24,000 nt of DNA from Tenuifilum thalassicum (GCF_013265555.1 NZ_CP041345.1:766581-790580); one strand, 5' to 3'. Positions 2,150 to 23,510 are shown, counted from the stretch's first letter. Notes: generated by a model from the letters alone, not told the origin. Numbers and translations are program-made.

Positions 2150-2530
2150 ATCGGACTCATCCCGATATTTCCGACTCATTCATCTAACTTCCTCTAACTT
2201 CCTTTAACTCCCTCATATTCCTAAACAAGAGAAGCCTTGACTACGCTCGGCATGACAAAAACTTCCAATTTCTTCCGATTATTTCCGAGTCATTCCGAGT
2301 CATTCTTTTAACTTCATCTAACTTCTTCTAACTCCCTTTAACTTCTTCTAACTCCTTCATATTCCTCAACAAGAGATGCTTCGGCAAGCTCAGCATGACA
2401 AAGGCTTCCGACTACTTCCGAATATTTCAGAATCATTCCGAATTATTCCTCTAACTTCCTCTAACTTCTTTTAACTTCCTCATATTCTTCAACCAGAAAT
2501 GCCTAGATTACGTTCGGCAAGACAAAGGCT
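2150..2530. repeat. Non-coding nested tandem repeat: 3 degenerate units (periods 143 and 124 nt) built from 10-nt and ~11-nt sub-repeats
   Basis: The anchor CATATTC(C/T) recurs at 2214, 2357 and 2481. Each unit carries 3, 5 and 3 copies of YYTAACTYCY, several TTCCGANTNATT copies, and a conserved tail ...AACAAGAGA(A/T)GC...GCATGACAAA. The third unit overlaps the last ~15 codons of the WYL gene. Confidence 0.75.
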
Positions 2531-3517
2531 TTCCTTAAGAGTATTCTGGAATTGTGCTCGAACATCTTCTGGTTCAAGAACCTCAATATCGGGACAAAAG
2601 TTTAGGAGAAGCGCAAAAAGCTCTTTATTAGGAATTACTTTAATACGAACCTCCAACTTATCGCCCACAAAACGGTGTTTTTGAGAGGGGTGTAATGGTT
2701 TTGTAATAACATATGGTGCCCTAGTTTTTGAGAAAAGCAGCTTAATTTCAACGGGTTCGGCATCGGCATAACGGGTCACGCCAACAATATCGTAAAAAAA
2801 CTCCTCCCAATCGGTTTCGGATTGAATATACTTAAGGGATGTCACCTCGATGCTAATAATTCTATCAAGAGCTAGATTCCAGTAAGGGTTATCCTCTTCC
2901 TGGTTGAATCCTAAAACAAACCACCTGTTATTGTACTCTTTTAGGTGGTATGGATGGTAGTGGAAGTATTTTGGTTCCTCGGCAAAATAGCGTTTATAAC
3001 CAATCCTAAGAACCTGCTGGTTAATAATGGCATTAAACAAAACGCCAAAATGCTCAAGTCCCTTCAAATCGCGATTAAAATCGAAGCTAACAACAGGATT
3101 GCCATTGCTTTGTAATCCGCCAAATTTATGTTGAAGCAGCGGTACAACCTCATACACCCAATCAAATTGAGGCATACCCTCAAATCGGGCTAAAACATCA
3201 ATGGCCGCCTTAATCTTTTCTATTTCTTCCTGTTTGATTGGAATATTATTTATGGAAAACTCCGGATTCGAATAGCGATAGAATTTTCTCCTGCCGTCTT
3301 GTATTCGTTCTATGTCGGCACTAAAACCCTCGCTGCTCTCCATGAAGTTTATATCATCTAGAACCTGTCTCTTGCTTACAGATTTAGAGGGATCAATATC
3401 TTGTAATACCTTATTAATCTCCTCAATTAAATCCTCAACGTAATACTTTCTGCCAGTATTCCTGAAGCATCGATCTAATACCTGATATCGAATTAAGGCA
3501 TTCTTGTTAATTGGCAT
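2489..3517 (-). CDS. WYL-domain transcriptional regulator (N-terminal HTH + WYL)
   Basis: The start MPINKNALIRYQVLDRCFRNTGRKYYVEDLIEEI is typical of Bacteroidetes HTH-WYL proteins. A WYL-like core is present (HLKEYNNRWFVLGFNQEEDNPYWNLALDRIISIEV). I prefer the ATG at 3517 over the track start at 3622, which would overlap the divergent gene at 3611. Confidence 0.8.
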   Translation of the reverse strand: MPINKNALIRYQVLDRCFRNTGRKYYVEDLIEEINKVLQDIDPSKSVSKRQVLDDINFMESSEGFSADIERIQDGRRKFYRYSNPEFSINNIPIKQEEIEKIKAAIDVLARFEGMPQFDWVYEVVPLLQHKFGGLQSNGNPVVSFDFNRDLKGLEHFGVLFNAIINQQVLRIGYKRYFAEEPKYFHYHPYHLKEYNNRWFVLGFNQEEDNPYWNLALDRIISIEVTSLKYIQSETDWEEFFYDIVGVTRYADAEPVEIKLLFSKTRAPYVITKPLHPSQKHRFVGDKLEVRIKVIPNKELFALLLNFCPDIEVLEPEDVRAQFQNTLKESLCLAERNLGISG

Positions 3518-3554
3518 AGCTGTATGAATTGATAAATATAAAGGTAATGAATTT

Positions 3555-3590
3555 TGCAGAAAGAGTGCACAGGTTGATATTTTCTTTGTA
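3555..3590 (+). promoter_or_regulatory. Operator/promoter module, degenerate copy (TGCAGAAAGAGTGCA-N8-TATTTTCTTTGTA)
   Basis: Same 15-8-13 nt architecture as the two near-identical copies at 4632-4667 and 15735-15770. It lies in the divergent WYL / paralog-1 intergenic region, 21 nt upstream of ATG 3611. Confidence 0.4.
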
Positions 3591-3610: not shown

Positions 3611-4075
3611 ATGAGAAAGCAACTAATACTAATGGTTTTAATAATGGGCGCGGTAGGATGGGAAAGTCATGCTCAGATATTGTTGAACATTGACGAAATT
3701 ATTGAAAAATACGGACACCCTTTCGACAAAGAAAGTATTAACGACTCTATGTATTATATGGTTTATAGTTATGACCAGATTTATAATAAGCAAACCGATA
3801 TTATGCGCCTGAAAAGCGATTACGTAAAGCTGGGTATCATAAACAATCAAACAACCGAAATATGCATTGTGGTACTTCAGGAATACCCCTCTGCGTATTT
3901 ATATAAGGCTATAAATGTATTAAACAGCTATATGTATAAGCCAAAAAAAAACGACTTTATTTGGGTAAATCGTAAAAAGGGTACGGTAAAACGTATACTA
4001 TATGAAAAAGGGATGCAAACTTTTTATGTTGCAGAGTTATACTATGGTAATCACGTGATGGACATGTTGAAATAA
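3611..4075 (+). CDS. Small secreted protein, paralog 1 of 3 (unknown function)
   Basis: 154 aa with an N-terminal signal peptide (MRKQLILMVLIMGAVGWESHAQ). It shares the motif IDEIIEKYGHP and overall layout with the next two ORFs. Confidence 0.7.
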   Translation: MRKQLILMVLIMGAVGWESHAQILLNIDEIIEKYGHPFDKESINDSMYYMVYSYDQIYNKQTDIMRLKSDYVKLGIINNQTTEICIVVLQEYPSAYLYKAINVLNSYMYKPKKNDFIWVNRKKGTVKRILYEKGMQTFYVAELYYGNHVMDMLK

Positions 4076-4134
4076 TAAGAATTCAGGAAGGTAGAAAGGA
4101 TAAATTTTATTTAAATAAAACAACACCATAAACC

Positions 4135-4611
4135 ATGAGAAAGATTACACTAATAATGCTATTTCTCCTATCTGCTAAGGTGGGGCTATCGCAACTCTGG
4201 TTAACAGAAGATGAACTTATTAAAAGGTATGGAAAGCCTATTGAAAAGGGATATTTTGAAAAGATCCCTGATTTAGATTTGTACTACCTGATATTTGATT
4301 CAGAAAACGTAAACAAAACAAGCGAATACAAGTGTGAATACCTGAAAGCCTTCTTGCCAATAGATACTTCCATAGTTAACTATTGCTTTTGGGTTGAAGC
4401 TAAGTATCCTATTAAATACATCTACTCCTTCATTGAAAACTACAATAAAAAATATAGTAGACCTTTAAAGGAAGACTTGAAATGGATTGACTATAACGAA
4501 GCTGTTTGGCACTATTTATACATTACCGCTGAAGAAGACTACTTTTTAGCTGTAGATATGGTTGACTTTGAATTGCTAATAAGGGAAGAAAAAAGTGATT
4601 ATGACTACTAA
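4135..4611 (+). CDS. Small secreted protein, paralog 2 of 3
   Basis: 158 aa with signal peptide MRKITLIMLFLLSAKVGLSQ and the motif EDELIKRYGKP. Confidence 0.7.
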   Translation: MRKITLIMLFLLSAKVGLSQLWLTEDELIKRYGKPIEKGYFEKIPDLDLYYLIFDSENVNKTSEYKCEYLKAFLPIDTSIVNYCFWVEAKYPIKYIYSFIENYNKKYSRPLKEDLKWIDYNEAVWHYLYITAEEDYFLAVDMVDFELLIREEKSDYDY

Positions 4612-4631
4612 AAATAATTTGTATCAAACTA

Positions 4632-4667
4632 TGCAGAAAGGCTGCATCATTCACCCCCAACTTTGCA
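4632..4667 (+). promoter_or_regulatory. Operator/promoter module TGCAGAAAGGCTGCA-N8-CCCCAACTTTGCA
   Basis: The 15-mer palindromic box and the 13-mer containing a -7-like AACTTTG are identical to the minus-strand copy at 15735-15770, with the same 8-nt spacer length. It lies 25 nt upstream of ATG 4692. Confidence 0.6.
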
Positions 4668-4691
4668 ACGTAACAATTAAATCATGAAGCC

Positions 4692-5102
4692 ATGAATAAG
4701 ATACTGATAGCTTTGTTTGTACTGACATGGGCGCTTCCTGGCAAAACACAGCTAGGATATACCCTTGAGGAAATCATACAAAAGTATGGCGATAACTACT
4801 CCGTAGGATATAATTCCGATAGCTTATTCTATGCCATTTTTGAAAATGTGAAAGCAGGTCGTTCCGAAAAGAAAACTGTTATGATAACTTTATTCAATTC
4901 CGATAGAAAAGATGCCATTTGCATTGGCAAATTGATTGTTTATAGTCTTGATGAGATCAATGAAGCAGTCGACAAGTTTAATAAGAAATATGTTAAGAAA
5001 TCGGAGTTGGAGTGGAAGGACTACGAAAATGGTATTTTATACATTATTGATATTGACAGAAACAGAGGCTTATTTACAATAACAAGTTTAATCGATTTAT
5101 AG
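4692..5102 (+). CDS. Small secreted protein, paralog 3 of 3
   Basis: 136 aa with signal peptide MNKILIALFVLTWALPGKTQ and the motif LEEIIQKYGDNY. Confidence 0.7.
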   Translation: MNKILIALFVLTWALPGKTQLGYTLEEIIQKYGDNYSVGYNSDSLFYAIFENVKAGRSEKKTVMITLFNSDRKDAICIGKLIVYSLDEINEAVDKFNKKYVKKSELEWKDYENGILYIIDIDRNRGLFTITSLIDL

Positions 5103-5104
5103 CC

Positions 5105-5434
5105 ATGGGTGTATATGCAGTTAATTTGGATGAGGGCACCTTTACCCAGGACAAGGATACCTACAAGAATAGGTTAATGGACCCCCAATGGAAGACACGC
5201 AAGGAGGAAATACTAAAGCGCGATGGATATCGGTGTGTGGTTTGTGGTAGTACCGAAAACCTTGAGGTGCATCATAGGCAGTATCATTACCTGATTGCAG
5301 CAGGCCGTTACCGCGACCCTTGGGATTACGACGACCACATACTGATTACACTTTGCAAGGAATGCCACTCCGATGGACATACGCATTATAAAGTACCAGT
5401 AATATTTATTGATAAAACTAATAAAATTGTATAG
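5105..5434 (+). CDS. Small HNH (His-Me finger) nuclease-like protein
   Basis: 109 aa. The sequence RDGYRCVVCGSTENLEVHHRQYH...ITLCKECHSDGH gives CxxC...HH...CxxCH zinc/HNH spacing. The start is 2 nt after the preceding stop. Confidence 0.75.
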   Translation: MGVYAVNLDEGTFTQDKDTYKNRLMDPQWKTRKEEILKRDGYRCVVCGSTENLEVHHRQYHYLIAAGRYRDPWDYDDHILITLCKECHSDGHTHYKVPVIFIDKTNKIV

Positions 5435-5436
5435 CT

Positions 5437-6024
5437 ATGGCAATATTCAACCTATTTAGAAGAAAAATAAGCAACGAAGCAGCAAATAGCTCAACTGCGG
5501 CATCTGCCACCTCACCGGTTGCAACTAACCAACCACCAAGGGTTCCTAAAGAGATTTTCATTGAAGAAAATGGCCCAGAAAACAGGTCGTTAACTTTCAA
5601 ATCTAATGGGCAAAAGGTGGGAATTGATCTAATATACGACTACCTACAGGTGGACTTTGAACGTAAAGGCTATGAGGATGCCATCACCCATCCTGATGAA
5701 AGCTACAAAAACGACAATATCAATCTTTTAAAGATGGACCTGGCCATATTAGTTCAAAAAGTTGACAGCTACTACACCGAGCGGCTAAAGGAGCTCGATT
5801 TCCACATCGAATCGCGGAAACGTTCAGGACTGGTTGACCTGGTAATGGAGCTAAACTCGCAAAAAGAAGTTGTTCTAAGCCATATGGAAAGACTAAATGG
5901 CATTAAGAACGACATTGAGACTGGTAACGGAATAACCAAACGGGTTGAGCTATCGTATCAGCGTGGTTTTTCACGTGGTCTTTCGTCCATAACTAAATCA
6001 AAATTTATGAACCAAAAACTTTAG
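5437..6024 (+). CDS. Hypothetical protein (low-complexity N-terminus, predicted coiled-coil)
   Basis: 195-aa ORF starting 2 nt after the HNH stop. I recognise no family motif. Confidence 0.6.
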   Translation: MAIFNLFRRKISNEAANSSTAASATSPVATNQPPRVPKEIFIEENGPENRSLTFKSNGQKVGIDLIYDYLQVDFERKGYEDAITHPDESYKNDNINLLKMDLAILVQKVDSYYTERLKELDFHIESRKRSGLVDLVMELNSQKEVVLSHMERLNGIKNDIETGNGITKRVELSYQRGFSRGLSSITKSKFMNQKL

Positions 6025-6038
6025 CTATGTGTGTCGAT

Positions 6039-6117
6039 TGCAGGGGGCTCCAAACTATTTGGATAGTTTGAGAAATGAAAAGTGTGTATTGTTAAAACTT
6101 GTTCCCCCTGCATTTTT
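6039..6117 (+). terminator. Long structured terminator-like element
   Basis: TGCAGGGGG (6039-6047) pairs with CCCCCTGCA (6104-6112) and is followed by T5. An inner hairpin CAAACTA/TAGTTTG is present. It lies directly after the 195-aa gene. Confidence 0.4.
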
Positions 6118-6159
6118 AAATTATTAAACTATTCACATTAACTTTAATATTATTGTAAA

Positions 6160-7116
6160 ATGAGAGATCTTTGGCTAAAAACAAGCTGCTTTTTCACTGG
6201 ATTCAACTACCAAATAGTAAAAAACTCGAGTGAGGCTGCTGCTAAAATGGTAAAAAAGAACATGTCGGCGCTAATCATTATCAGCATACTTTGGGCATTT
6301 ATTGGATTTAACTTTACTTCGCGCTACTTGCATGGCAATACGCTAACCTCGCTTATTGTAGCATTGGTAATGGTTGTTGTAGTTATTCAAATTGAAAGGC
6401 AGATACTGTTAAATGTAACAAACTCAAAAGGTGCAATTACTTTTCGAACTATTATTGGTGTAATCATGGCCTTTATTGGTTCAATAATTATTGACCAAAT
6501 CATTTTCAAGGACGATATAGAGCAAGGCCAGATGGCAACAGTACAGCAAAGGGTTAACCGGATTTTACCCATGAAGACTACCGAGCTGAAAGAGCAAATA
6601 GCTCAGATAGCCAATGCAATAGAAAGCAAAGAGGCGGAAAGAAATCAGATATTAGTGGAACTGGGCAAGAATCCTACCATCAGCACCCCAACCTCCGTTG
6701 GCAAATACGAAAAGGATAGTACCGGCAAAATGGTTATGGTTGGCCGGGAGGTAACCTACCAGTCGGTACCTAACCCTAAAGCTAGCTTGATCCCCCAGAT
6801 TGATGACCAGCTCGCTCAGCTAAGAACCGATTTGGCAAAAAAGGAGGAGTTGCTGCTAAACATTCGCAGCGAGATTGAAAAGGAGATGCAATCAAAAACA
6901 GGTTTCCTCGACGAGCTAACCGCTCTTTATAAAATTGCTACCTCCTCTTTTGTATCAATTTTTGTTTGGATGCTATTTTTCCTCTTTTTCGCATCAATGG
7001 AGCTGTTCATATTGGTAAATAAAATTAGCGATAACCATACCGATTACGAGGATATTATAATGCACCAAATGAGGGTCAGAATGAAGCAGCTTGAGAAGCT
7101 ATCGGAAACTGTTTAA
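6160..7116 (+). CDS. DUF4407-like membrane protein (N-terminal TM helices, central coiled-coil, C-terminal TM)
   Basis: 318 aa. The start LWLKTSCFFTGFNYQIVKNSSEAAAKM is followed by hydrophobic helices, a long charged coiled-coil and a C-terminal hydrophobic segment (FVSIFVWMLFFLFFASMELFILV). This matches my recollection of the DUF4407 layout; no HMM was run. Confidence 0.55.
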   Translation: MRDLWLKTSCFFTGFNYQIVKNSSEAAAKMVKKNMSALIIISILWAFIGFNFTSRYLHGNTLTSLIVALVMVVVVIQIERQILLNVTNSKGAITFRTIIGVIMAFIGSIIIDQIIFKDDIEQGQMATVQQRVNRILPMKTTELKEQIAQIANAIESKEAERNQILVELGKNPTISTPTSVGKYEKDSTGKMVMVGREVTYQSVPNPKASLIPQIDDQLAQLRTDLAKKEELLLNIRSEIEKEMQSKTGFLDELTALYKIATSSFVSIFVWMLFFLFFASMELFILVNKISDNHTDYEDIIMHQMRVRMKQLEKLSETV

Positions 7117-7121
7117 AAAGT

Positions 7122-7147
7122 TTGCGCAAGGCCTAGGCCTTGCGCAA
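7122..7147. terminator. Bidirectional terminator between convergent genes
   Basis: Perfect 26-nt palindrome TTGCGCAAGGCCTAGGCCTTGCGCAA between the + gene ending at 7116 and the - operon ending at 7297. Confidence 0.6.
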
Positions 7148-7296: not shown

Positions 7297-8808
7297 TTAA
7301 ATTACTTTTATTGCTTTCCATCCTAAAGTTTTTTTCTTTTTGTTATAGGATAAAATAGCCATACCCTTTAACAGTTGTCCATCATTTAGATTATTTTTTT
7401 TAATAATTATTGGTTCAACAAAGATGTTTTCAATGAAACCAAAGTTTTGTGATGGGTTTATTTTAAGTTTTCCTTCAAAACTCTTTAATGCATCACATGG
7501 TATATCAGCGTCAACTTTTTTTGCTGACAGAATGTTATAATATCCATCCCTGCCATTTCCATTAAAACGAACCTTTAAAAGGTCCCCAATTTGAGGATTG
7601 GAAATGTAATCTGAATACCTAAAAAAACCATATTTGTTTTTATCCTTCACAAAATTCAGTATTTTCTTGTTTTCATTTACAAACTCGACTACAACCAATT
7701 CTTCAGGTACATCCTGAAACAATATTTCCTCTGCTTTCTTGATGTGAATTGAATACAAATCTTGGTTGTCATTTTTAGCTGAGGCAGATTTATACCACTC
7801 TTGTTCTGTCCATTGCGCTATTTGGTTCGGCAGCTTCCATTCGTGTTTCTCTCTTGCTTCTATAATTTTCTGGATTTCCGTTTTTGCTTCATTGTACATT
7901 TGCTTTTCTATGAGCAATTCGGCAAATGTTTGACGAAGTTTAACCAAAAAGTCTTCAGGCGTTTTCAGACTCAATGCTTTGCAGTAGCAAGCAAATTTGA
8001 TATTTTTGTCATAAGAGAAAATTTCTGCCATCAGTTCCCAAACCCAAAATTCATTTCTTTTTTGTTTCGCAAAAGGCAAAAATGCGGACAAAACATTTTC
8101 ATCGCTACCTAATGATAATAGGAGTTTTGCTTTGAAATATGGGGGATATTGATACTCTGGATGTTTTTCTATCAAAGAATCAAGTTTGGGCAAAAATGAT
8201 TGAATCTTTTCCTTATCAATCACTCTTTCTTGTCCAAAAGGATCCAGGGGTTCCCCCTCTAAAAGTTTCTTTGAGTAGGCGATATACGCCTGTTCAGCAA
8301 TAGACATTATTTTTTTTCTATTGTATTCTTCTTTTAAATAGTCTTCGGAGCGAAGGTTATTTAAATCCCACCAGTCAGCAAACTCTAAATACTTTGACCA
8401 GTTTTGATAGCCTTTGTGAAAAGCTTTATAAATAAATGAATATGCTTCTGATGGCTTGGAGAAATGAAAGTCTCTGATAATTTCAAACAACTCATTGATT
8501 TTGTCATAATCAACATGCTCTGTTTTCTGTAATGCAAAAACCAAACTGCCGATTTGCCATGCACAATTGTCAAACACCATTTTTTCATCTTCCGGCAATT
8601 GCAAATTTTTTAGCTTAATGAGATTATCCTTGAAGACCTCATACGAATCCGGTTGAGCATTTTTTTTGAGATAGTCATAATACACCCATGCAGCTGCCCG
8701 CTTGTTCCAGATGTTTTCGGGTTCTGCTTCCAAAGCTTGATTTGCCATTTGCAAAGCTTCATCAAGCTTTCCCGCTTGTCGTAGTTCTTTGATTTCTCTA
8801 AATGACAT
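7297..8808 (-). CDS. TPR-like repeat protein with two C-terminal cold-shock/S1-like OB-fold modules
   Basis: 503 aa. The N-terminus has helical TPR-like repeats (GKLDEALQMANQALEAEPENIWNKRAAAWVYYDY...). The C-terminus reads ...NKYGFFRYSDYISNPQIGDLLKVRFNGNGRDGYYNILSAKKV and ...FEGKLKINPSQNFGFIENIFVEPIIIKKNNLNDGQLLKGMAILSYNKKKKTLGWKAIKV, which follows the CSD pattern G..k...GFGFI...diFV....l..Gq.v. Its start overlaps the helicase stop by 11 nt. Confidence 0.7.
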   Translation of the reverse strand: MSFREIKELRQAGKLDEALQMANQALEAEPENIWNKRAAAWVYYDYLKKNAQPDSYEVFKDNLIKLKNLQLPEDEKMVFDNCAWQIGSLVFALQKTEHVDYDKINELFEIIRDFHFSKPSEAYSFIYKAFHKGYQNWSKYLEFADWWDLNNLRSEDYLKEEYNRKKIMSIAEQAYIAYSKKLLEGEPLDPFGQERVIDKEKIQSFLPKLDSLIEKHPEYQYPPYFKAKLLLSLGSDENVLSAFLPFAKQKRNEFWVWELMAEIFSYDKNIKFACYCKALSLKTPEDFLVKLRQTFAELLIEKQMYNEAKTEIQKIIEAREKHEWKLPNQIAQWTEQEWYKSASAKNDNQDLYSIHIKKAEEILFQDVPEELVVVEFVNENKKILNFVKDKNKYGFFRYSDYISNPQIGDLLKVRFNGNGRDGYYNILSAKKVDADIPCDALKSFEGKLKINPSQNFGFIENIFVEPIIIKKNNLNDGQLLKGMAILSYNKKKKTLGWKAIKVI

Positions 8809-11005
8809 AGTCAGCTTCTTTTAGGTGGTTTACAATAGATTTGATTTTAGCAAGAAGTTCGGGTGAGTTACATTTCTTTTCTAGTGGAAGCACGCGCCCA
8901 AAAAAACCTGCCTTATCGTATTCAAAGTCAATTACGCAAGACTGTTCATGGTTTTTTATAGTATACCTTTCACGGTATTCGAGATGCTGAATGTTGGAAA
9001 TGACTTCACCGTTTGATAAACCTCGGCTAATAAAATCGAAAAGATTTTTCAAGAATGGCTTTTCTTCTTCAATTGCTATATCAAATTCTATTTGTGTTAA
9101 AATACCCTCGGCATTATTTCTATTTACTAAAATCGGAGTAGCACATTCTAATATTTTGGCGATGGTTTCAAATAATTCATCAGAGTTGGTTTGTGCAGGA
9201 AGCTTTTGAAAATTATTATTAAAAACATTCTGCCCATTAACCCAGTATTTGAAACCCGCTGTTTGTGATTCTCTTTTGAAGATATATCGTACTTCATACC
9301 CAACTTTCTGCCAAAATTTAATATTAATATTTTGCTTTCGCAAATAATACCATCTGTGAATGAAATGGTCTTGAATTGTTATTGGTTCATTTTCTAAACC
9401 AAATTTTTCAAGTTCGGGCAAAACTTCTTTAATATTTATTTCAGTATTAATATTTGTTTGTCCAGTTAAGTCATTATATGCTTGTTGAATTTTTGTATCA
9501 ACAAAACTCATCTCAGAAAAAGAAGAGAAGTATGGTGGATTAATACAGAATAACCTTTTAGAAGCACGTGTTACTGCCGTGTAGGCCCAACGGAAAAATT
9601 CAGGATTTGTCTTTCCAGTTCTATTATGTGGCGATTCATAAAAGTTAAACTTATTGTTGATCCCTTTATCCCAAAAAACAAAAGCATTTGGCCATTCACC
9701 GCCCTGGGCTTTGTGACAGGTTACGGCATAGCCATATTTTAAAAGAATGCAATTGAAATACTCATCTTTGATGATGGCTTCTTTAAATTCTTCAGTACCT
9801 TTTTTGAGGTTGGGGTGCCTTTTTTTGAAATCTACGTAAAGGGCTATTTGTTCATCAGGTGTTAAAGTATTTTCACCGTATAAGTAGTTCTCTAAGATAA
9901 ATCCGTTTATGGTTTTGGGCTGATTTTTTTCATCGGGTAAAATAAGGCCAATTTTTCTCCATGTTAATTTTACGCTTATAGTTTTACCACCTTTTGTGTA
10001 AAAACTTACATCTCTGCTTACAACCGAAGGACTTACTTCTGAAACAATAGCAAACTCACCATTCATGATACCAAGGTAGTAATTGTTTGCGCCAATAACA
10101 ACAGTATCAGATGGTTGTATTGGCAAATCATCCCCAAACTTATCTTTACGGATAACTCGGTTCAAATTAAGAGCTGTTTTGTTTTTATGGCAAATGATTA
10201 TTTTAGGTTCTTGTTGCACATTATAAGTCTCCAAAAATTCCTGATAGGAAGGATTAAAAATATCCTTCTTATTTTCTCTCAAATCAAAGTCATTGAAGTA
10301 GCCCGATGTAAGACACCGTCTTATTTTAGTGGCAGCAATCAAGATGCCATTATTGACCTCTTGACGTTTAACCTCCTTCATTTCCGCTTGAGATACAGAA
10401 ACCTTGTAGGTCTCGCTAATATAATTTGGATCAAGTGCAGGAGAGAAGTTCATTCCAATGGGAGGCAACTGAGATGGGTCTCCTATAAAAATAATTTTGT
10501 TGTTTGTTTCGCATTCTTGAATCCTACTGTAGGAAATAAGATCTCGCAACAAATGACCGCTGCCAAAGCGGAAAAACTCTCCTTGGCTCAAAATATCACT
10601 GACCATTGACGCTTCATCTATTATCAGAACCGAATCATGAACCTCCGGGTTGTTCCTGATTTTATATTGATATAAAAACGAAACATCATTTTCGTTTTCA
10701 CCTTGCTTTATTTCCTGCAACTCTTCAAAGCTGTATATGCCTTTGTGAATGGTGGTAGATTCAAAGCCTGTTTTTTGTTTGATGACTCTTGCTGCTCTGC
10801 CGGTCGGAGCCATTAATTGGTACCTTTTCTCTAAAGATTTAAGATATTCAACCAAGCCTTTGAGTAGGGTTGTTTTACCACTTCCCGCATATCCCTGAAG
10901 GATAAATATTCGCTCATCACTTTCTAAAAAAGCATGAAGCTTTTCCAACGCATTGCGTTGGTCGTTGGTGAGGTTGATATGTTGGAAATGGTTGAAGATT
11001 TTCAT
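8798..11005 (-). CDS. SF1B RecD/Dda-like DNA helicase with ~230-aa C-terminal extension
   Basis: 735 aa. Motifs seen: Walker A GYAGSGKTT, Ia APTGRAA, Walker B IIDEASMV, III IFIGDPSQLPPIG, V TCHKAQGGEW and VI YTAVTRA. There is an ATGA start/stop overlap with the upstream gene. Confidence 0.85.
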   Translation of the reverse strand: MKIFNHFQHINLTNDQRNALEKLHAFLESDERIFILQGYAGSGKTTLLKGLVEYLKSLEKRYQLMAPTGRAARVIKQKTGFESTTIHKGIYSFEELQEIKQGENENDVSFLYQYKIRNNPEVHDSVLIIDEASMVSDILSQGEFFRFGSGHLLRDLISYSRIQECETNNKIIFIGDPSQLPPIGMNFSPALDPNYISETYKVSVSQAEMKEVKRQEVNNGILIAATKIRRCLTSGYFNDFDLRENKKDIFNPSYQEFLETYNVQQEPKIIICHKNKTALNLNRVIRKDKFGDDLPIQPSDTVVIGANNYYLGIMNGEFAIVSEVSPSVVSRDVSFYTKGGKTISVKLTWRKIGLILPDEKNQPKTINGFILENYLYGENTLTPDEQIALYVDFKKRHPNLKKGTEEFKEAIIKDEYFNCILLKYGYAVTCHKAQGGEWPNAFVFWDKGINNKFNFYESPHNRTGKTNPEFFRWAYTAVTRASKRLFCINPPYFSSFSEMSFVDTKIQQAYNDLTGQTNINTEINIKEVLPELEKFGLENEPITIQDHFIHRWYYLRKQNINIKFWQKVGYEVRYIFKRESQTAGFKYWVNGQNVFNNNFQKLPAQTNSDELFETIAKILECATPILVNRNNAEGILTQIEFDIAIEEEKPFLKNLFDFISRGLSNGEVISNIQHLEYRERYTIKNHEQSCVIDFEYDKAGFFGRVLPLEKKCNSPELLAKIKSIVNHLKEADYVI

Positions 11006-12702
11006 GCAAGCAACTTTTGTATGATTTGTGAAACTTGTTCTAATAATATTTTATATCCTTCATAAAAATAAATCTTGTCGCATTCCGTTTTTAAGTTATC
11101 AGTAAGCTTTTTTTCAGAGGGATGAATAAACTCGTTCCTCCTTTTTATAGAATAATAAAGTTGCTGTACATCTTCATCTTTATATTCCAAAAGTTGAAAA
11201 CATAGCCCGGCTACTTTTTCGAATGTTGTGGGTAAATTGTTTTTGAAGTTTGGTGTGTTAGTAAATGTGTATTTATTTTTTTCTTCATCCCATCTATACT
11301 GTTTGAGTTCTTGAGGTCCTTTAATACACCATTTGTTTTCATCATTTTTAAACACGTATTCACCAGCAATTAGTTCTAAACACTTAAATAAGGATATATA
11401 TGCATAGGCAAAATCATCTTTGGAATTTGCTTTTTCATACATATTGTATGAAAGTTGTAAAATCTTAATAAGCTCTTTACCAATGTGCTTATCGAATTTT
11501 TTATTTTTTATGGCTGTTGTTAAAGATTTCGATAATTGATTTATCGATTGGTTTACAGGCTTTAAATAACTTGCCCGGTTAATAGAACCTTCAACAACCT
11601 GTTTAAGGTTCTTAATATCCTCGGCTACATTAGAATCATCTCTTTTAATAATATATCCGTTAGCACCAAGCCCTTGAACCGACTGGTAATTCCAAATCTT
11701 ATTTGAAGCAGTAGTTATAATTACTTGAATTCCCTTGTTGATTTTTTTTATTTCCTCTAATATCTTGTAACCTGTTAGCTCTTTAGGTTCTTTATTTTCT
11801 TTAAAATCTGAATCGCAAAGCCGTAAATCAAGCAGCACTACATCAGCATCTTCGCATTTCTTTATTGCACGATCAATTATTTCATTTTGACTTAAAGATT
11901 TGAACTCTACTTCCAATATATCAAATTTAATTGTATTATTATTAATGTTATTTTGTAAAAAACACCTGTAAAAATCACCCCAGCCTCTTTTGGCTTCATC
12001 GTCTATTAATAAAACTTTTCCTTTACCGTTTATTAAATATGGGGTACCTTGTTTAGTCTCTGCAACAGGATTTAGTGCTTGATAGTATTTAAAATACAGT
12101 CCCTTTTGTAAATTTTCCTTTACTTCAAGGATATTGTTATCACATTTTAAATAGGTGGACCACCTAAGTAATGCAAGCTCATTATCTATGCTATGATGAG
12201 ATTGATAATTGGCAGGAGGAGATAATTGCAGTCTCTTCAAACATTTTTCCCATTCCGTTTCAGAGATTCGGGGTTTATGCTCTTGAATCAAAATATATTC
12301 ATTTTTCAGTGCATCTCTATCTGTTTTTGCAATATGGAACACTCCAGGTGTAAATAGGATATTTCCTAATTCAGAAAGTTTAGCAATTTGATTCGGTGTT
12401 TCAATACCTATAAAGACTATTGGAACAAGATGATGTCTGAATTCTTTTGTTACCCTGATGTGAGCTGCTACTCTTAAACCGGTTAATTCAAAATAGTTTT
12501 GTTGCGAAAGCGTATAAGGGATAAATATTACATCATAAGCTTTATTCTGAAATGCTTTCGACAAAGAATCATGTAAAAATCTATCCAGTACAAAATTTGA
12601 ATTTTGTGAGGCTTGAGAATAGTCTATAGCGGATTTGTCTCCATGAAAATGATCAGTTAAACTTGTTGGTAAATTATCTCCATGGAATAAGATTGCTTTC
12701 AT
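11002..12702 (-). CDS. Pseudo-receiver + canonical receiver (REC) domain protein with C-terminal helical HEPN-like domain
   Basis: 566 aa. The canonical REC is KVLLIDDE...DVVLLDLRL...IQVIITTAS...ANGYIIK, with the D-D, D, T and K residues all present. The N-terminal ~140 aa is receiver-like without the acidic residues. The C-terminal helical region contains KRRNEFIHPS, i.e. R522-N-x3-H527 (nt 11122-11139), followed by one long terminal helix. Confidence 0.7.
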   Translation of the reverse strand: MKAILFHGDNLPTSLTDHFHGDKSAIDYSQASQNSNFVLDRFLHDSLSKAFQNKAYDVIFIPYTLSQQNYFELTGLRVAAHIRVTKEFRHHLVPIVFIGIETPNQIAKLSELGNILFTPGVFHIAKTDRDALKNEYILIQEHKPRISETEWEKCLKRLQLSPPANYQSHHSIDNELALLRWSTYLKCDNNILEVKENLQKGLYFKYYQALNPVAETKQGTPYLINGKGKVLLIDDEAKRGWGDFYRCFLQNNINNNTIKFDILEVEFKSLSQNEIIDRAIKKCEDADVVLLDLRLCDSDFKENKEPKELTGYKILEEIKKINKGIQVIITTASNKIWNYQSVQGLGANGYIIKRDDSNVAEDIKNLKQVVEGSINRASYLKPVNQSINQLSKSLTTAIKNKKFDKHIGKELIKILQLSYNMYEKANSKDDFAYAYISLFKCLELIAGEYVFKNDENKWCIKGPQELKQYRWDEEKNKYTFTNTPNFKNNLPTTFEKVAGLCFQLLEYKDEDVQQLYYSIKRRNEFIHPSEKKLTDNLKTECDKIYFYEGYKILLEQVSQIIQKLLA

Positions 12703-12807
12703 ATTTTAGCTATGATTTTATTTATTTCTTGGTTAAGTTCTTCAATTGTTTTTGAGCCAATAATGGATTCCAAACTTTCCTTAATTGGTTCTATAGCACG
12801 TGTTAAA

Positions 12808-13191
12808 TTATCCTGTAACAAAAGTTTGCCTGTATGTCATCATTATATTTAATTTCCAATTATCTCCATAGATGAGTTCTGAAATGTGTTCTATTTTATC
12901 TTCCACGTACCTGCGCAAAAATTCAGGTAAAGTATTGTTGTAAAAATCTTTTGAGTTGAGTAGGAAATACGGATATGGTTCAAAGTAGAAAAGTGACTGC
13001 CCAACACCTCCACTAAAAAAGACTAATGGCTTTCTCTTACTCTTACAATGTGAAATTACTGTGTTTATTCCACCATTAGATAAAGATGAACGATGGATAA
13101 TAATTAAGTCATAATCATTCAAAGAGGCAAATTCTTTCTTGTTGAGTTCATCGATCAATTTTCTACATTCTTCATGAAGGCATATAAACAT
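12808..13191 (-). CDS. Receiver-like (flavodoxin-fold-like) hypothetical protein; probably the central fragment of a frameshifted ~194-codon gene
   Basis: 127-aa ORF (DYDLIIIHRSSL...KPLVFFSGGVG pattern). Open fragments in the +1 shifted frames flank it at 13172-13282 and 12699-12836. Both fragments are ATGA-coupled to the neighbouring genes (see findings). Confidence 0.55.
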   Translation of the reverse strand: MFICLHEECRKLIDELNKKEFASLNDYDLIIIHRSSLSNGGINTVISHCKSKRKPLVFFSGGVGQSLFYFEPYPYFLLNSKDFYNNTLPEFLRRYVEDKIEHISELIYGDNWKLNIMMTYRQTFVTG

Positions 13192-13278
13192 TTTCTATAC
13201 TATTAATTTTCTCAATACGTTCTTTATTAAGATACTGTTCTTGCCTTCCTGGACGGTCTTCTAATAAAAGTACTTTTT

Positions 13279-15456
13279 TCATGGTAAATAGAATTTTAAT
13301 ATGTAGGTAAAGCCTTTAACTATGCAATCTTCCTTTTTTATTTCGGCAATATGGAATTGGCTGTTTTCATGAGATATTTTAACATTAGGGTATAAATATT
13401 TTAACACAAAATCACCATCAGTAAAATGAGCTGCCACTTCAAAATCACAAATACTTATGAGGGGTTTAATTACCTCTTCCAAATCACCACTAGGCTTCAT
13501 GAATTTAGAGTGCTCTGAATTTTTAAGAGGGTGTGAGCCTATGTGAATTATTTTTAATAAAATCAAATTCTGGTTAGATAATCGATTACATGAAATCTCA
13601 ACTTCACGGTTTTCTGTTCTTGTTTGTATCATTCGGAAAATCCGTCTTATGGCTTTTAATACAGGCACGGTGTAAACTGTAAACGACTCATACTTTAGAG
13701 TTTCAAGACCACTCACCTTGAATTCTCTTAATTCCTGCAATACAAGATTATTTATTTCATAATAAAAATCTCTTGTTTCTTCTCTAAATGCAATTTCTCT
13801 TTTAAACAGATTAATAATATCTCCAAAGAATCTAATTTCCTTGCCATACATTAACCTATATTTTTGATTGGCTTCTGCCGATACTAAATCATCAGAAATA
13901 GACATTTCAAAAGGTGTCTTTTTTAAAGCATGTGGTTTATTGTCATAATTTTCCACTATCCAATTAATAACACTATCTGGGTATTGCCAACCGATTTTTA
14001 TACCATATTTTCCCCATTTAAATGGAATTTCCTTCCCTTCTTTATTTGTTGATATTTTTTTTTGAAATACAAATGGGTAAATTACATTCCACCAAAGATT
14101 GGCATTATATTTCTGAAGAAAGACAAACTCTTCATATCGTGAATTAACAGCTTTAAAATAATTTTCTGTAGATGAATTACTTTCGGAATTGATATCGGGA
14201 GAAGTATCCCAAAAATGTGTAAGCCATTTCATAATTGGATCTGAAGTAAACTGCTCAAGTTTATTGATGACTAATTTTGGGTCGTGAAATATTGCTTTTT
14301 TATCTTCTGACAGCACATTAAGGTGTTCTTGGGTTCTGTTTTGTTCTATTATCTCATTATTTTCAATAGGATTTTCAGATTTAGTCAATCTATCAAACCT
14401 CTTCTTCAGCCCTTGATAGGTTGAATCCTTGAATCCCTTCACCATCTTCAGGAATTCCAATTTCCCGTCCAACACATTCACCAAATGTGCATTCATGTTT
14501 TTCACATGCCCTTTATCGGCAATGTAATCCCGTTTAAAAATCTGTTCCGCTTTTTCATAGCCATACTTTTCCCAATAGTACAGCCACATACGGATTTGCT
14601 TTATATACCTCCTGTGGACATTTACCTTTTCGTTTACAATCAATCCTGTTGCTTCCTGGCGATAACCCGCTTTTTGTAAACGTGTTTTATTAGGGTTGAT
14701 GACAAGTTTTTGATCTTCTTCAATAATTCGCTTTAGCTCCTTGATAAAATCATCATCTTTATAAATATTGTGAAGTGAAGAAAAGGTTATGTCATCTGCA
14801 TATCTAGTATATGTCGCACCAAATCGCTTGGCAAGTCCGGTTAGTCTGCGATCAAGTTTTTTGCAAAGAATATTTGTTAAAGTTGGCGATGTAGGGCTAC
14901 CCTGAGGAAGTACTGTTTTTATTTCTCCATCTACTTCTAATGGATGAGTGCAAAGACATGCTAATAGAAAAGCCAAAGATTCTTTGTCTCCTTTTAGGTT
15001 AAATGGCTCATACATAAAACCTATCTTCACCCTATTTCGGTCAAATGAATGAAAAAAATCTTTTAAATCAATATTATAGACATAATTTTGCCCTAAATGT
15101 TTTTTTGCATTATCGACAATTGATTTATTCAAAACAAATCCTGTAGCGGCTTTATGCGGTTCATAAATACACTGCAGTACAAAATTGAGAACCCGAAGAA
15201 TAGACTTTAACCCACTTACTGGTGAATGAATTATCCTGTCTTCACCAGACTTTTTCTTTATGGTAAAAGTCTGATAACGTTTTTTACACAGGTCAGGATT
15301 CGCATAATAAGTCAAGGACTTTTTTTGAAAAGGCATGCTATTTTCACCATAAAGCATTTTTTTTGCATTGTTAAGCAACTTCAATAAATCGTCTTTGCTT
15401 TGCATTTCTGCAAATTGCTTTCTTAATTGCTCTATGTGAACTTTATCTACTTTCAT
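13279..15456 (-). CDS. Retron-type reverse transcriptase with ~350-aa uncharacterised C-terminal extension
   Basis: 725 aa. RT motifs seen: KKKSGEDRIIHSP, NAKKH (retron NAxxH), NIDLKDFFHS, LPQGSPTSPTLTN, YADD (nt 14791-14802), NPNKTR, and RQEATGLIVNEKVNV (position of the retron VTG motif). I see no maturase/endonuclease or DGR-type motifs. Confidence 0.9.
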   Translation of the reverse strand: MKVDKVHIEQLRKQFAEMQSKDDLLKLLNNAKKMLYGENSMPFQKKSLTYYANPDLCKKRYQTFTIKKKSGEDRIIHSPVSGLKSILRVLNFVLQCIYEPHKAATGFVLNKSIVDNAKKHLGQNYVYNIDLKDFFHSFDRNRVKIGFMYEPFNLKGDKESLAFLLACLCTHPLEVDGEIKTVLPQGSPTSPTLTNILCKKLDRRLTGLAKRFGATYTRYADDITFSSLHNIYKDDDFIKELKRIIEEDQKLVINPNKTRLQKAGYRQEATGLIVNEKVNVHRRYIKQIRMWLYYWEKYGYEKAEQIFKRDYIADKGHVKNMNAHLVNVLDGKLEFLKMVKGFKDSTYQGLKKRFDRLTKSENPIENNEIIEQNRTQEHLNVLSEDKKAIFHDPKLVINKLEQFTSDPIMKWLTHFWDTSPDINSESNSSTENYFKAVNSRYEEFVFLQKYNANLWWNVIYPFVFQKKISTNKEGKEIPFKWGKYGIKIGWQYPDSVINWIVENYDNKPHALKKTPFEMSISDDLVSAEANQKYRLMYGKEIRFFGDIINLFKREIAFREETRDFYYEINNLVLQELREFKVSGLETLKYESFTVYTVPVLKAIRRIFRMIQTRTENREVEISCNRLSNQNLILLKIIHIGSHPLKNSEHSKFMKPSGDLEEVIKPLISICDFEVAAHFTDGDFVLKYLYPNVKISHENSQFHIAEIKKEDCIVKGFTYILKFYLP

Positions 15457-15474
15457 ATCAAATTATTTGAAAGA

Positions 15475-15728
15475 CTTTGAAACACCTGCCCTGATACTCT
15501 ATAAGTATTAAAGACCAAAAAAAAAAAATTTAATTAGGGGTTATTCTTAGTCAGCGTTATTACTGGCGTCAATGTAAATCTCAGTTCTGAAGTTATGCTC
15601 AGAAACTGTGCTCATTAATGCCACTCTGACATTCATTCCAACAAAAGTTGGAATAAGATGCCGATCATTGCCTAAACAAATTTAGGCCAGCACCCACAAA
15701 TCAATATCTTTAGGCAAGTGTTTCAAAG
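15475..15728 (-). ncRNA. Candidate retron-like msr/msd ncRNA (structured RT-associated RNA)
   Basis: A 16-bp long-range inverted repeat with one G-U pair closes the region: minus-strand CUUUGAAACACUUGCC (15728-15713) pairs with GGCAGGUGUUUCAAAG (15490-15475). Internal hairpins lie at 15670-15687, 15635-15654 and 15582-15608. A promoter-like module sits directly upstream, and the RT ATG is 19 nt downstream. Confidence 0.55.
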
Positions 15729-15734
15729 AACTTC

Positions 15735-15770
15735 TGCAAAGTTGGGGATTATTTGTGCAGCCTTTCTGCA
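15735..15770 (-). promoter_or_regulatory. Operator/promoter module TGCAGAAAGGCTGCA-N8-CCCCAACTTTGCA driving the ncRNA/RT operon
   Basis: Minus-strand sequence is identical in both boxes and in spacing to the copy at 4632-4667. The -7-like AACTTTG places a predicted start within a few nt of the a1 arm (15728). Confidence 0.6.
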
Positions 15771-16097: not shown

Positions 16098-16203
16098 ATC
16101 GACCCCTCCCAACCTCCCCTCTCAGGGGAGGCTTTTTTTCATGGATAGAAATTGCGTTATTTTTCCCCTCTCCTCACAGGAGAGGGGAAAGGGGTGAGGT
16201 CGC
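16098..16203. repeat. REP-like GC-rich hairpin element (copy 1)
   Basis: Hairpin CCTCCCCT-CTC-AGGGGAGG plus T7 lies at 16113-16139. Hairpin CCCCTCTCC-TCACA-GGAGAGGGG followed by AAAGGGGTGAGGTCG lies at 16165-16203. The second part recurs at 23469-23510. Confidence 0.6.
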
Positions 16204-16348
16204 CAAAACCTGCCCCACAGTCAAAAAAACTTCCGGTTCATTCCGCCTTTTCCCATCCCGTAAACAAATATTAACAAAACTATTTTGGTTTTAAAAGTTT
16301 TCTATCCGAATTTTGTACACAGAAAACTATTTAAGTTTAAAAAGTTTT

Positions 16349-23442: not shown

Positions 23443-23510
23443 ACCCCCTCACCCCGCCTTATCGGGCTCCCCTCTCCTTACAAAGGAGAGAGGATGGGGG
23501 TGAGGTCGTT
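23443..23510. repeat. REP-like GC-rich nested hairpin element (copy 2)
   Basis: CCTCACCCC...CCCCTCTCC-TTACAAA-GGAGAGAGG-AT-GGGGGTGAGGTCG. It shares the CCCCTCTCC...GGAGAG.GGA..GGGGTGAGGTCG core with 16165-16203, in the same orientation. Confidence 0.6.

Follow-up and report, generated by a model that had tools for sequence, protein, structure and literature searches.

In Bacteroidota, promoters of the primary sigma factor follow the consensus -33 TTTG / -7 TAnnTTTG. The closest described parallels to the promoters reported here are those controlled by WYL-family transcription factors. DriD and PafBC are ssDNA-triggered activators of promoters without a -35 element. The site of DriD from Caulobacter crescentus is CGAC-N7-GTCG, and 68 of 69 driD homologues have a box ~17 nt ahead of the start codon (PMC10853764). 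The DriD box overlaps the absent -35 element and its distance to the -10 is identical across targets (PMC13004042). By our own arithmetic, based on the didA oligonucleotides and the published 'optimal -35' placement, the gap between GTCG and the -10 is ~11 nt, give or take ~1 nt. The 'sigma adaptation' promoter of PafBC in mycobacteria (tGTCgg-N10-tA-N3-T) similarly pairs its -10 with a WYL-factor element whose distance to it is fixed, and has no -35; the WYL-factor element is non-palindromic and read by one HTH of a heterodimer, which requires RNA polymerase for DNA binding. BrxR is a repressor that uses palindromes at two promoters of one island, its sites being 10–11-bp repeats with a 5-bp spacer, located downstream of the -10 (PMC9122601), and CapW is a repressor that is released by ssDNA (PMC11662680).

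It is already known that WYL regulators lie beside defence systems, and that they are associated with retrons in Bacteroidota (bioRxiv 10.64898/2026.05.14.725207). The latter work describes 'TXI_C2like', protease-less type XI-like retrons with WYL proteins, and treats the WYL protein as an accessory module; the words promoter, TOTE and histidine kinase are absent from it (bioRxiv 10.64898/2026.05.14.725207). These retrons share with the locus presented here the same kind of RT lineage, WYL neighbours and an ncRNA flanked by a1 and a2. Our literature searches, which covered TOTE systems with a reverse transcriptase as well as WYL promoter motifs in Bacteroides, returned no prior description, an absence which is not proof of novelty. 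In particular, neither the box reported below nor its rigid spacing from the -7 turned up in them, nor did its recurrence at loci of the retron/TOTE, R-M, Druantia-like, DdmD-like and phage kinds.

We analyzed a stretch of 24,000 nt from Tenuifilum thalassicum (the window), which contains a low-GC island at ~2.5–16 kb comprised of a WYL gene, the P1–P3 side and a convergent RT operon (Table 1). P1–P3 are diverged signal-peptide paralogues with pairwise identities of 22–30%. The RT matches the PADLOC retron RT models at 3e-98, and is preceded by a 270-nt ncRNA that lies between module Mc and the RT start codon, is closed by a 16–17-bp a1/a2 stem and folds at -90.9 kcal/mol (z = -7.5). Judged by these sequence features, a retron-clade RT and an upstream ncRNA with a1/a2, the system is a retron and is predicted to produce msDNA. 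The operon also carries the hallmarks of TOTE (for the acronym, see PMC12458937), with Pfam matches to S1CSD-TOTE-1 and -2, DUF7017 and TBP-TOTE, in a TPR and S1/CSD OB-fold protein and a TBP-domain protein. Nothing in the window matched Rfam families or was called as a tRNA. The succession of RT-HisKin and iREC-REC (11002–15456) suggests a phosphorelay within the retron system, while other relatives of the RT have the RT alone (~360–410 aa) plus a 265–335-aa protein instead. A run of 13 T residues in the ncRNA region (15517–15529) falls in a large loop of the predicted fold.

Table 1 Coordinates of the island's genes, ncRNA and promoter elements, counted from the first letter of the window.
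Feature	Position	Strand	Description
WYL regulator gene	2489–3517	-	342 aa, wHTH-WYL-WCX; Pfam WYL and WCX
Candidate -7 box of WYL promoter	3539–3546	-	TACCTTTA on the minus strand, read from sequence
Module Ma	3555–3590	+	box TGCAGAAAGAGTGCA 3555–3569, 15 nt, TTTG 3585–3588
P1 and P2	3611–4611	+	signal-peptide paralogues; P1 3611–4075, P2 4135–4611
Module Mb	4632–4667	+	box 4632–4646, -7 box CAACTTTG 4658–4665
P3 operon	4692–7116	+	P3 4692–5102; HNH-like 109 aa 5105–5434; 195-aa protein (X195) 5437–6024; DUF4407 6160–7116
GC-rich palindrome, terminator-like	7122–7147	.	between the two convergent operons
RT operon	7297–15456	-	five genes, retron RT-HisKin to TPR-DUF7017-S1CSD
TPR-DUF7017-S1CSD	7297–8808	-	RT operon
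SF1 helicase with TBP-TOTE domains	8798–11005	-	RT operon
iREC-REC	11002–12702	-	RT operon
127-aa protein	12808–13191	-	RT operon
Retron-type RT fused to 'conflict' HisKin	13279–15456	-	
Retron ncRNA	15465–15734	-	a1 CTTTGAAACACTTGCC 15728–15713; a2 GGCAGGTGTTTCAAAG 15490–15475
Module Mc	15735–15770	-	box 15770–15756 (flanks G15771, C15755), -7 box CAACTTTG 15744–15737

The preliminary description of this DNA reported a 36-nt module, TGCAGAAAGGCTGCA-N8-CCCCAACTTTGCA, ahead of P3 and ahead of the ncRNA, and both copies (Mb and Mc) are present exactly as described, with boxes identical at 15/15 and 13/13 positions (28/28 together) and spacers of 8 nt. The module had zero occurrences in 100 dinucleotide-preserving shuffles of the window. 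The two spacers differ at 5/8 positions (TCATTCAC vs CAAATAAT) and the flanks beyond the 36 nt are unrelated, thus the two boxes appear to be constrained, rather than parts of a recent copy. The palindrome GTGCAG/CTGCAC noted at the RT copy is borne out by the sequence, and the P3 copy likewise contains a 6-bp palindrome (ATGCAG/CTGCAT), which had been overlooked. A third copy, Ma, consisting of TGCAGAAAGAGTGCA-N15-TTTGTA between the divergent WYL gene and P1, had been called degenerate. Its presence stands; the label does not, since the site fits the family definition TGCA-N7-TGCA-N15-TTTG and is a full member. TGCA-N7-TGCA occurs at three sites only in the 24 kb, all of them modules, against a chance expectation of 0.49. 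Ma lies 22 nt from the ATG of P1 (3611) and 38 nt from that of the WYL gene (3517). We predict that Ma drives P1–P2, Mb drives P3-HNH109-X195-DUF4407, and Mc drives the retron ncRNA and RT operon. The single box of Ma would serve both P1, in the module geometry, and the divergent WYL promoter. A candidate -7 element for the latter is TACCTTTA, which is separated from the box by 8 nt and from the WYL ATG by 21 nt.

Mb and Mc form the longest inverted repeat of the window, with 11,067 nt between the copies. This inverted arrangement speaks for a structural repeat instead of a regulatory site, be it an 11-kb segment that inverts between the two copies, a mobile element that they terminate, a recent duplication or a gene-conversion tract. 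Comparison with sister Tenuifilum sp. contigs, which hold the same WYL<->P1-P2-[module]-P3-HNH-X195-DUF4407 block, bears on this reading. The sister genome has the same three promoters, plus one before the helicase gene. Its P1 module is that of the window (Ma is identical in loci L068–L071), and its P3 and RT modules differ from each other, TGCAGAAAGAGTGCA...TACTTACTTTGCT vs TGCAGAAAGGCTGCA...CACCAAATTTGCA. Thus, the 28/28 identity is specific to T. thalassicum, and some local homogenisation may have occurred there. However, homology of the two window copies ends at the box edges, and the window P3 spacer retains the ancestral TTCA core of the sister P3 spacer, which makes a simple conversion tract unlikely. 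Moreover, no recombinase gene or domain was found in the window, and in other genomes the copies are direct and stand at fixed promoter positions. On these grounds the invertible segment and mobile-element ends were rejected, and we consider a structural-repeat origin extremely improbable.

In the sister loci L068, L069 and L071 the block adjoins a retron/TOTE system without the histidine kinase, whereas in L070 it adjoins type III CRISPR/CARF genes with no retron. The WYL and P1–DUF4407 block is therefore separable from the retron. Window P3 is 100% identical to an NCBI protein of T. thalassicum, and the search for P3 homologues found one, in a sister Tenuifilum, so the paralogue side can be checked in the genus Tenuifilum only, where the module held. 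The set of secreted, HNH, 195-aa and DUF4407 genes (window 3611–7116) looks like a separate, uncharacterised unit; a set of secreted protein(s), HNH-like, 195-aa and DUF4407 genes recurs at L049:5200–9480, beside a distant retron relative.

We fetched 57 loci with relatives of the window RT (853 kb), mostly from Bacteroidota with a few Ignavibacteria. The same module lies ahead of the retron ncRNA and of other operons in dozens of these related genomes, in agreement with the earlier proposal of a common promoter module. Across the 853 kb, TGCA-Nn-TGCA peaks at n = 7 (194 counts on both strands vs ~30), and TTTG follows at exactly 15 nt past the box in 65 cases, with three or fewer at any other spacing. 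With one mismatch allowed to it, the module is found upstream of the retron a1 (GTTCTTTGAAAcAC[CT]TGCC) in 46 loci, where a1 is conserved directly after it, and a second module precedes the helicase-TBP ATG by 51–52 nt in 30 loci. In the window, no module stands before the helicase gene, which overlaps its upstream neighbour, and the closest relatives (L001–L003) share this arrangement; the second window module instead serves the P3 operon on the opposite strand.

The conserved core of these elements is (G)TGCA-N7-TGCA(C)-N11-nAnnTTTG, and 73 unique modules give the logo gTGCAgaTa.AcTGCAcA-(variable)-ttA.cTTTGcA. The -7 TAnnTTTG of the primary-sigma promoter is conserved, as CAACTTTG in Mb and Mc and as ttA.cTTTG in the family logo. 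The -33 TTTG has been replaced: in the logo of 73 unique modules there is none at the expected position, ~19–21 nt upstream of the -7, which is occupied by the CAGA of the box. Thus, the 36-nt element is a composite promoter, in which a GTGCA/TGCAC palindrome sits at the -33 place exactly 11 nt upstream of the -7 (nAnnTTTG). In Mc, a1 begins 7 nt past TTTGCA, hence a transcription start ~5–8 nt past the -7 element, just before a1, would yield exactly the retron transcript. A sigma-70 promoter scan of the window scored below chance, the sigma-70 model not being applicable to Bacteroidota. A sigma-54 promoter (TGGCAC-N5-TTGCA) was considered and rejected, since the GG and GC of the module start 24 nt apart, which is the wrong spacing.

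The distribution of the module separates it from promoters of general use. The system spans (505 kb) contain 64 strict modules and the flanks (348 kb) contain 1, where shuffling expects 0.1, which argues that the motif is not a general promoter. We therefore rejected a general housekeeping promoter, the module being all but missing from unrelated DNA in these flanks. The sole flank module lies ahead of an accessory operon, with a WYL gene at a distance of 2.5 kb. Extra copies are found before accessory genes, namely an AAA-ATPase pair (L054), DUF3127-like genes (L015, L022) and small ORFs (L014, L039, L051). In L054, the RT frame is interrupted by ~1.4 kb (10753–12196), and the module is duplicated together with an N-terminal fragment of an ATPase gene.

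Mb and Mc agree at 19 of the 24 variable positions, which makes them an outlier, since such pairs elsewhere in the family average 11.4 and reach 17 at most. Similarity of the first and second modules within a genome is weakly above that between genomes (11.4 vs 10.7 of 24 positions, p = 0.02), and this weak co-variation provides no strong signal tying box sequence to a particular regulator.

Comparison of gene neighbourhoods couples the box to WYL genes. Of the 57 RT loci, 40 encode a WYL homologue, and the 348 kb of their flanks contain no extra WYL gene. Three WYL homologues that we looked up had an adjacent box in 3/3 cases, including a Balneolaceae locus in which the -7 element ends in TTTT. 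In this locus (L192:5914–6000) the box, GTGCAGGTTGAGTGCAC, lies 14 nt from the WYL ATG, and the TTTT suggests a lineage-specific variant of the -7. Many WYL genes carry the box in their own promoter region: in the window it is 38 nt from the WYL ATG, and in 20 homologues a perfect box directly follows the gene's own TAnnTTTG, typically 17 nt ahead of the ATG. At L007:1154–1283 and similar canonical loci, AAAAGTATCTTTG, between the WYL gene and the retron module, can be read as a -7 element on either strand, so that the box close to the WYL start codon might additionally belong to a second promoter directed at the retron.

The coupling extends beyond retrons. A blind metagenome scan with the pattern GTGCAG-N6-TGCAC-N11-A-NN-TTTGCA returned at least 120 loci. 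Among the 120 listed, 115 were low-GC, 55 had a WYL-family gene and 9 had the RT, so that most were without a retron. In the matches listed, 21 boxes fell at the end of a WYL gene read in the same direction (-29 to +18 nt relative to its stop codon) and 12 were divergent, 29–433 nt from a WYL gene start; 90 modules were followed by an ORF, starting at a median of 27 nt past TTTGCA. A further 24 boxes in the non-retron loci of this set, outside the scan pattern, have the 15-nt spacing, other spacings numbering five or fewer. The genes behind the box encode, among others, an MTase-HATPase protein, a type I HsdR-like enzyme, AAA_15/DUF3696 ATPases, DdmD-like, DruH-like (Druantia-like) and Schlafen/AlbA_2 proteins, and a 91-aa protein (MGLLDFLFGK...) followed by lipoprotein genes. 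Proteins of the last kind, small, acidic and Cys-rich (77–99 aa, MGL[LF]DF...), follow a perfect module in L092, L094, L107, L109, L135 and 12 more loci, again ahead of lipoprotein genes and usually with no WYL gene nearby.

In viral contigs, the motif scan gave 10 matches, ~7 of which resemble real intergenic modules. Three have a WYL homologue nearby, by a phage terminase gene (L059, L061, L066), and in these the gene behind the module encodes either an ASCH-like or a 763-aa protein. L058, L062 and L063, also viral, have a module and no WYL gene in the stretch examined. Thus, the module is not private to the Tenuifilum island but represents a phylum-wide promoter class tied to the WYL family. 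The earlier proposal that the paralogue array and the RT operon form one regulon gains support from these comparative data, and we take the three window promoters, for P1–P2, P3-HNH-X195-DUF4407 and the retron ncRNA with its RT-HisKin/TOTE operon, as one regulon.

Not every box has a WYL gene beside it. In seven or eight RT loci (L003, L041, L042, L044–L046, L048, L053), mostly from Flavobacteriaceae, no WYL gene was found in the sequence examined, which reached up to 10 kb to either side; except for L053, these loci retain modules. Among the metagenome matches listed, ~60% of the well-flanked modules have no WYL gene within ~2.6 kb, so the binder either acts in trans or is something else. Modules also stand without a nearby WYL gene in most of the 17 loci with MGLLDFLFGK genes, and the half-sites are invariant across WYL proteins of 32–55% identity. 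All of these observations are compatible with a reader from outside the WYL family, such as a host factor common to Bacteroidota (an alternative sigma factor or global regulator) or one of the system's core components, with WYL genes as frequent neighbours or targets. We think such a reader improbable, because the box recurs at the 3′ end of WYL genes, or divergent from them, in phage, retron, R-M, Druantia-like and ATPase contexts, while no sigma factor or other DNA-binding gene recurs in the loci examined. The N7-spaced palindrome is suited to a dimeric wHTH, not to a sigma -35 element. The box is also found in RT-only and retron-free loci, thus the RT-HisKin, REC and TBP proteins are not required. 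The adjacent WYL regulator, earlier named as the candidate binder, is supported in this role by gene–box coupling, by the second boxes at WYL promoters and by a full-length wHTH-WYL-WCX fold, and we refer to it as the putative binder.

The WYL protein of the window matches Pfam WYL (9e-11) and WCX (8e-10). A single-sequence search against the PDB found no match, and a profile search matched PafBC, DriD, BrxR and CapW. We used AF2 with database homologues to model the protein, at medium confidence (pLDDT 77.6, pTM 0.41). The model shows a wHTH (helices 5–19, 27–41 and 49–60, wing 69–82) followed by a helical linker and the WYL and WCX domains; residues 5–82, which form the three helices and the β-hairpin, have a pLDDT of ~85–90. 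Alignments reveal that R10, D15, R50, Q51 and D55 are invariant in the N-terminal part, and R50, Q51 and D55 sit in helix 3 of the predicted wHTH. Full-length comparison with Foldseek gave E-values of 7.5e-15 for DriD, 6e-13 for PafBC, 1e-8 for BrxR and 4e-8 for CapW. DriD is thus the best structural match to the modelled protein, a preference over BrxR which depends on a model of medium confidence.

The promoters themselves also resemble those of DriD. Both have 4-bp half-sites with 7 bp between, a box over the missing -35/-33 at an invariant distance from the -10/-7 with a gap of ~11 nt, and a box ~17 nt ahead of the regulator's own start codon; in both, one regulator serves several promoters, as predicted in the window case. 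They differ in the half-site (TGCA in the module, CGAC for DriD), in the partner element, which here is the Bacteroidota -7 TAnnTTTG read by a different primary sigma, and in targets, which are anti-phage systems and phage accessory genes for the module and DNA-repair and division genes for DriD. The two proteins share ~16% sequence identity, and activation is a property of DriD that is only predicted here. The PafBC promoter is likewise bipartite with a WYL-factor element at a fixed distance and no -35/-33, whereas the module is a true palindrome, suited to a homodimer.

We infer WYL binding, the ligand and the sign of regulation as follows. A homodimer of the adjacent wHTH-WYL-WCX protein would bind the box, and its WYL domain would sense a signal, probably ssDNA from phage replication or DNA damage. 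The activated protein, like Caulobacter DriD, would then help RNA polymerase to start at promoters without a -33, such that the defence operons are switched on together. At many WYL genes the box just past the -7 would lead to negative autoregulation. Sharing of the DriD architecture (4-bp half-sites, N7, an 11-nt gap and no -33), together with the boxes past the WYL -7, favours activation of the DriD type at the cargo promoters with autorepression at the regulator's own, and by this analogy we put its chance of being correct at about even. Against activation, the WYL regulators of defence systems that have been characterised (BrxR, CapW) are all repressors.

The same box and the same WYL binder could alternatively be read as a repressor of the BrxR/CapW type, which blocks RNA polymerase at the -33 until ssDNA or an infection signal derepresses the promoter. 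The kinship of setting is clear: BrxR and CapW are likewise wHTH-WYL-WCX proteins encoded beside defence genes, their own promoter regions contain a palindrome, their islands hold more than one box, they are associated with many unrelated defence systems, and both are proven repressors (PMC9122601, PMC11662680). The module box covers the -33 position, a second box just downstream of the -7 of WYL genes stands in the classic position for repression, and the retron/TOTE effectors are probably toxic, making tight repression plausible. However, occlusion needs no exact, invariant spacing, yet this is seen in more than 100 promoters with unrelated cargo, and promoters without a -33 TTTG may be weak unaided. 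BrxR sites (10–11-bp repeats, 5-bp spacer, downstream of the -10) are unlike the module, whose arms are 4–6 bp with N7 core spacing and which lies upstream of the -7 at cargo promoters. In addition, BrxR boxes vary from system to system, whereas the half-site and promoter phasing of the module are invariant across the phylum. The box is kept in loci without a linked WYL gene, and the protein model is nearer to the activators DriD and PafBC than to BrxR and CapW. We regard repression at the cargo promoters as a real, if somewhat doubtful, possibility. The earlier reading of the palindrome as a repressor operator is not the sole one, since the phasing, the missing -33 and the DriD-like fold point at least equally to activation.

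The WYL family is large, with at least 6835 clusters at 90% identity. A bolder proposal, which we consider rather unlikely, takes its cue from the constancy of the half-site (GTGCA) and its phasing over thousands of WYL paralogues: any family member could read all boxes in a cell, which would create a genome-wide, ssDNA-triggered 'immune alarm' regulon of Bacteroidota. Defence islands that are not linked to one another would then be co-induced, along with retrons, accessory genes of prophages and a number of genes for small secreted proteins or lipoproteins. By itself, the motif could become a handle for unknown defence genes, and in retron loci msDNA or its breakdown products could be the WYL ligand, in a feedback loop between retron state and expression.

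Anti-phage regulation is almost unstudied in Bacteroidota, a dominant gut phylum. A short, rigid motif that can be scanned for would allow prediction of the genes that are co-induced with defence systems, and the promoter motif alone could help to find new defence or phage accessory genes; the module might also be used to build inducible Bacteroides promoters. If activation of the DriD type is correct, the use of an activator in place of the -35, described for DNA-damage regulons in Proteobacteria and Actinobacteria, would also reach immune systems and the unusual -33/-7 sigma of Bacteroidota. In the window, the retron-HisKin fusion, the TOTE effectors and the secreted-protein/HNH/DUF4407 operon would be tied into one testable regulon.

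Finally, we observed several repeats around the island. TTCC/CTAAC-rich dispersed and tandem repeats mark its left edge (2169–2531), and related pieces with G-rich hairpin-like sequences lie to its right (16175–16254) and again at 23481–23508; these may represent REP-like elements or mark the boundaries of the island. Inside or beside a 148-aa ORF, 31 nt are repeated exactly and in direct orientation (1985–2015 and 2057–2087, 72 nt apart).
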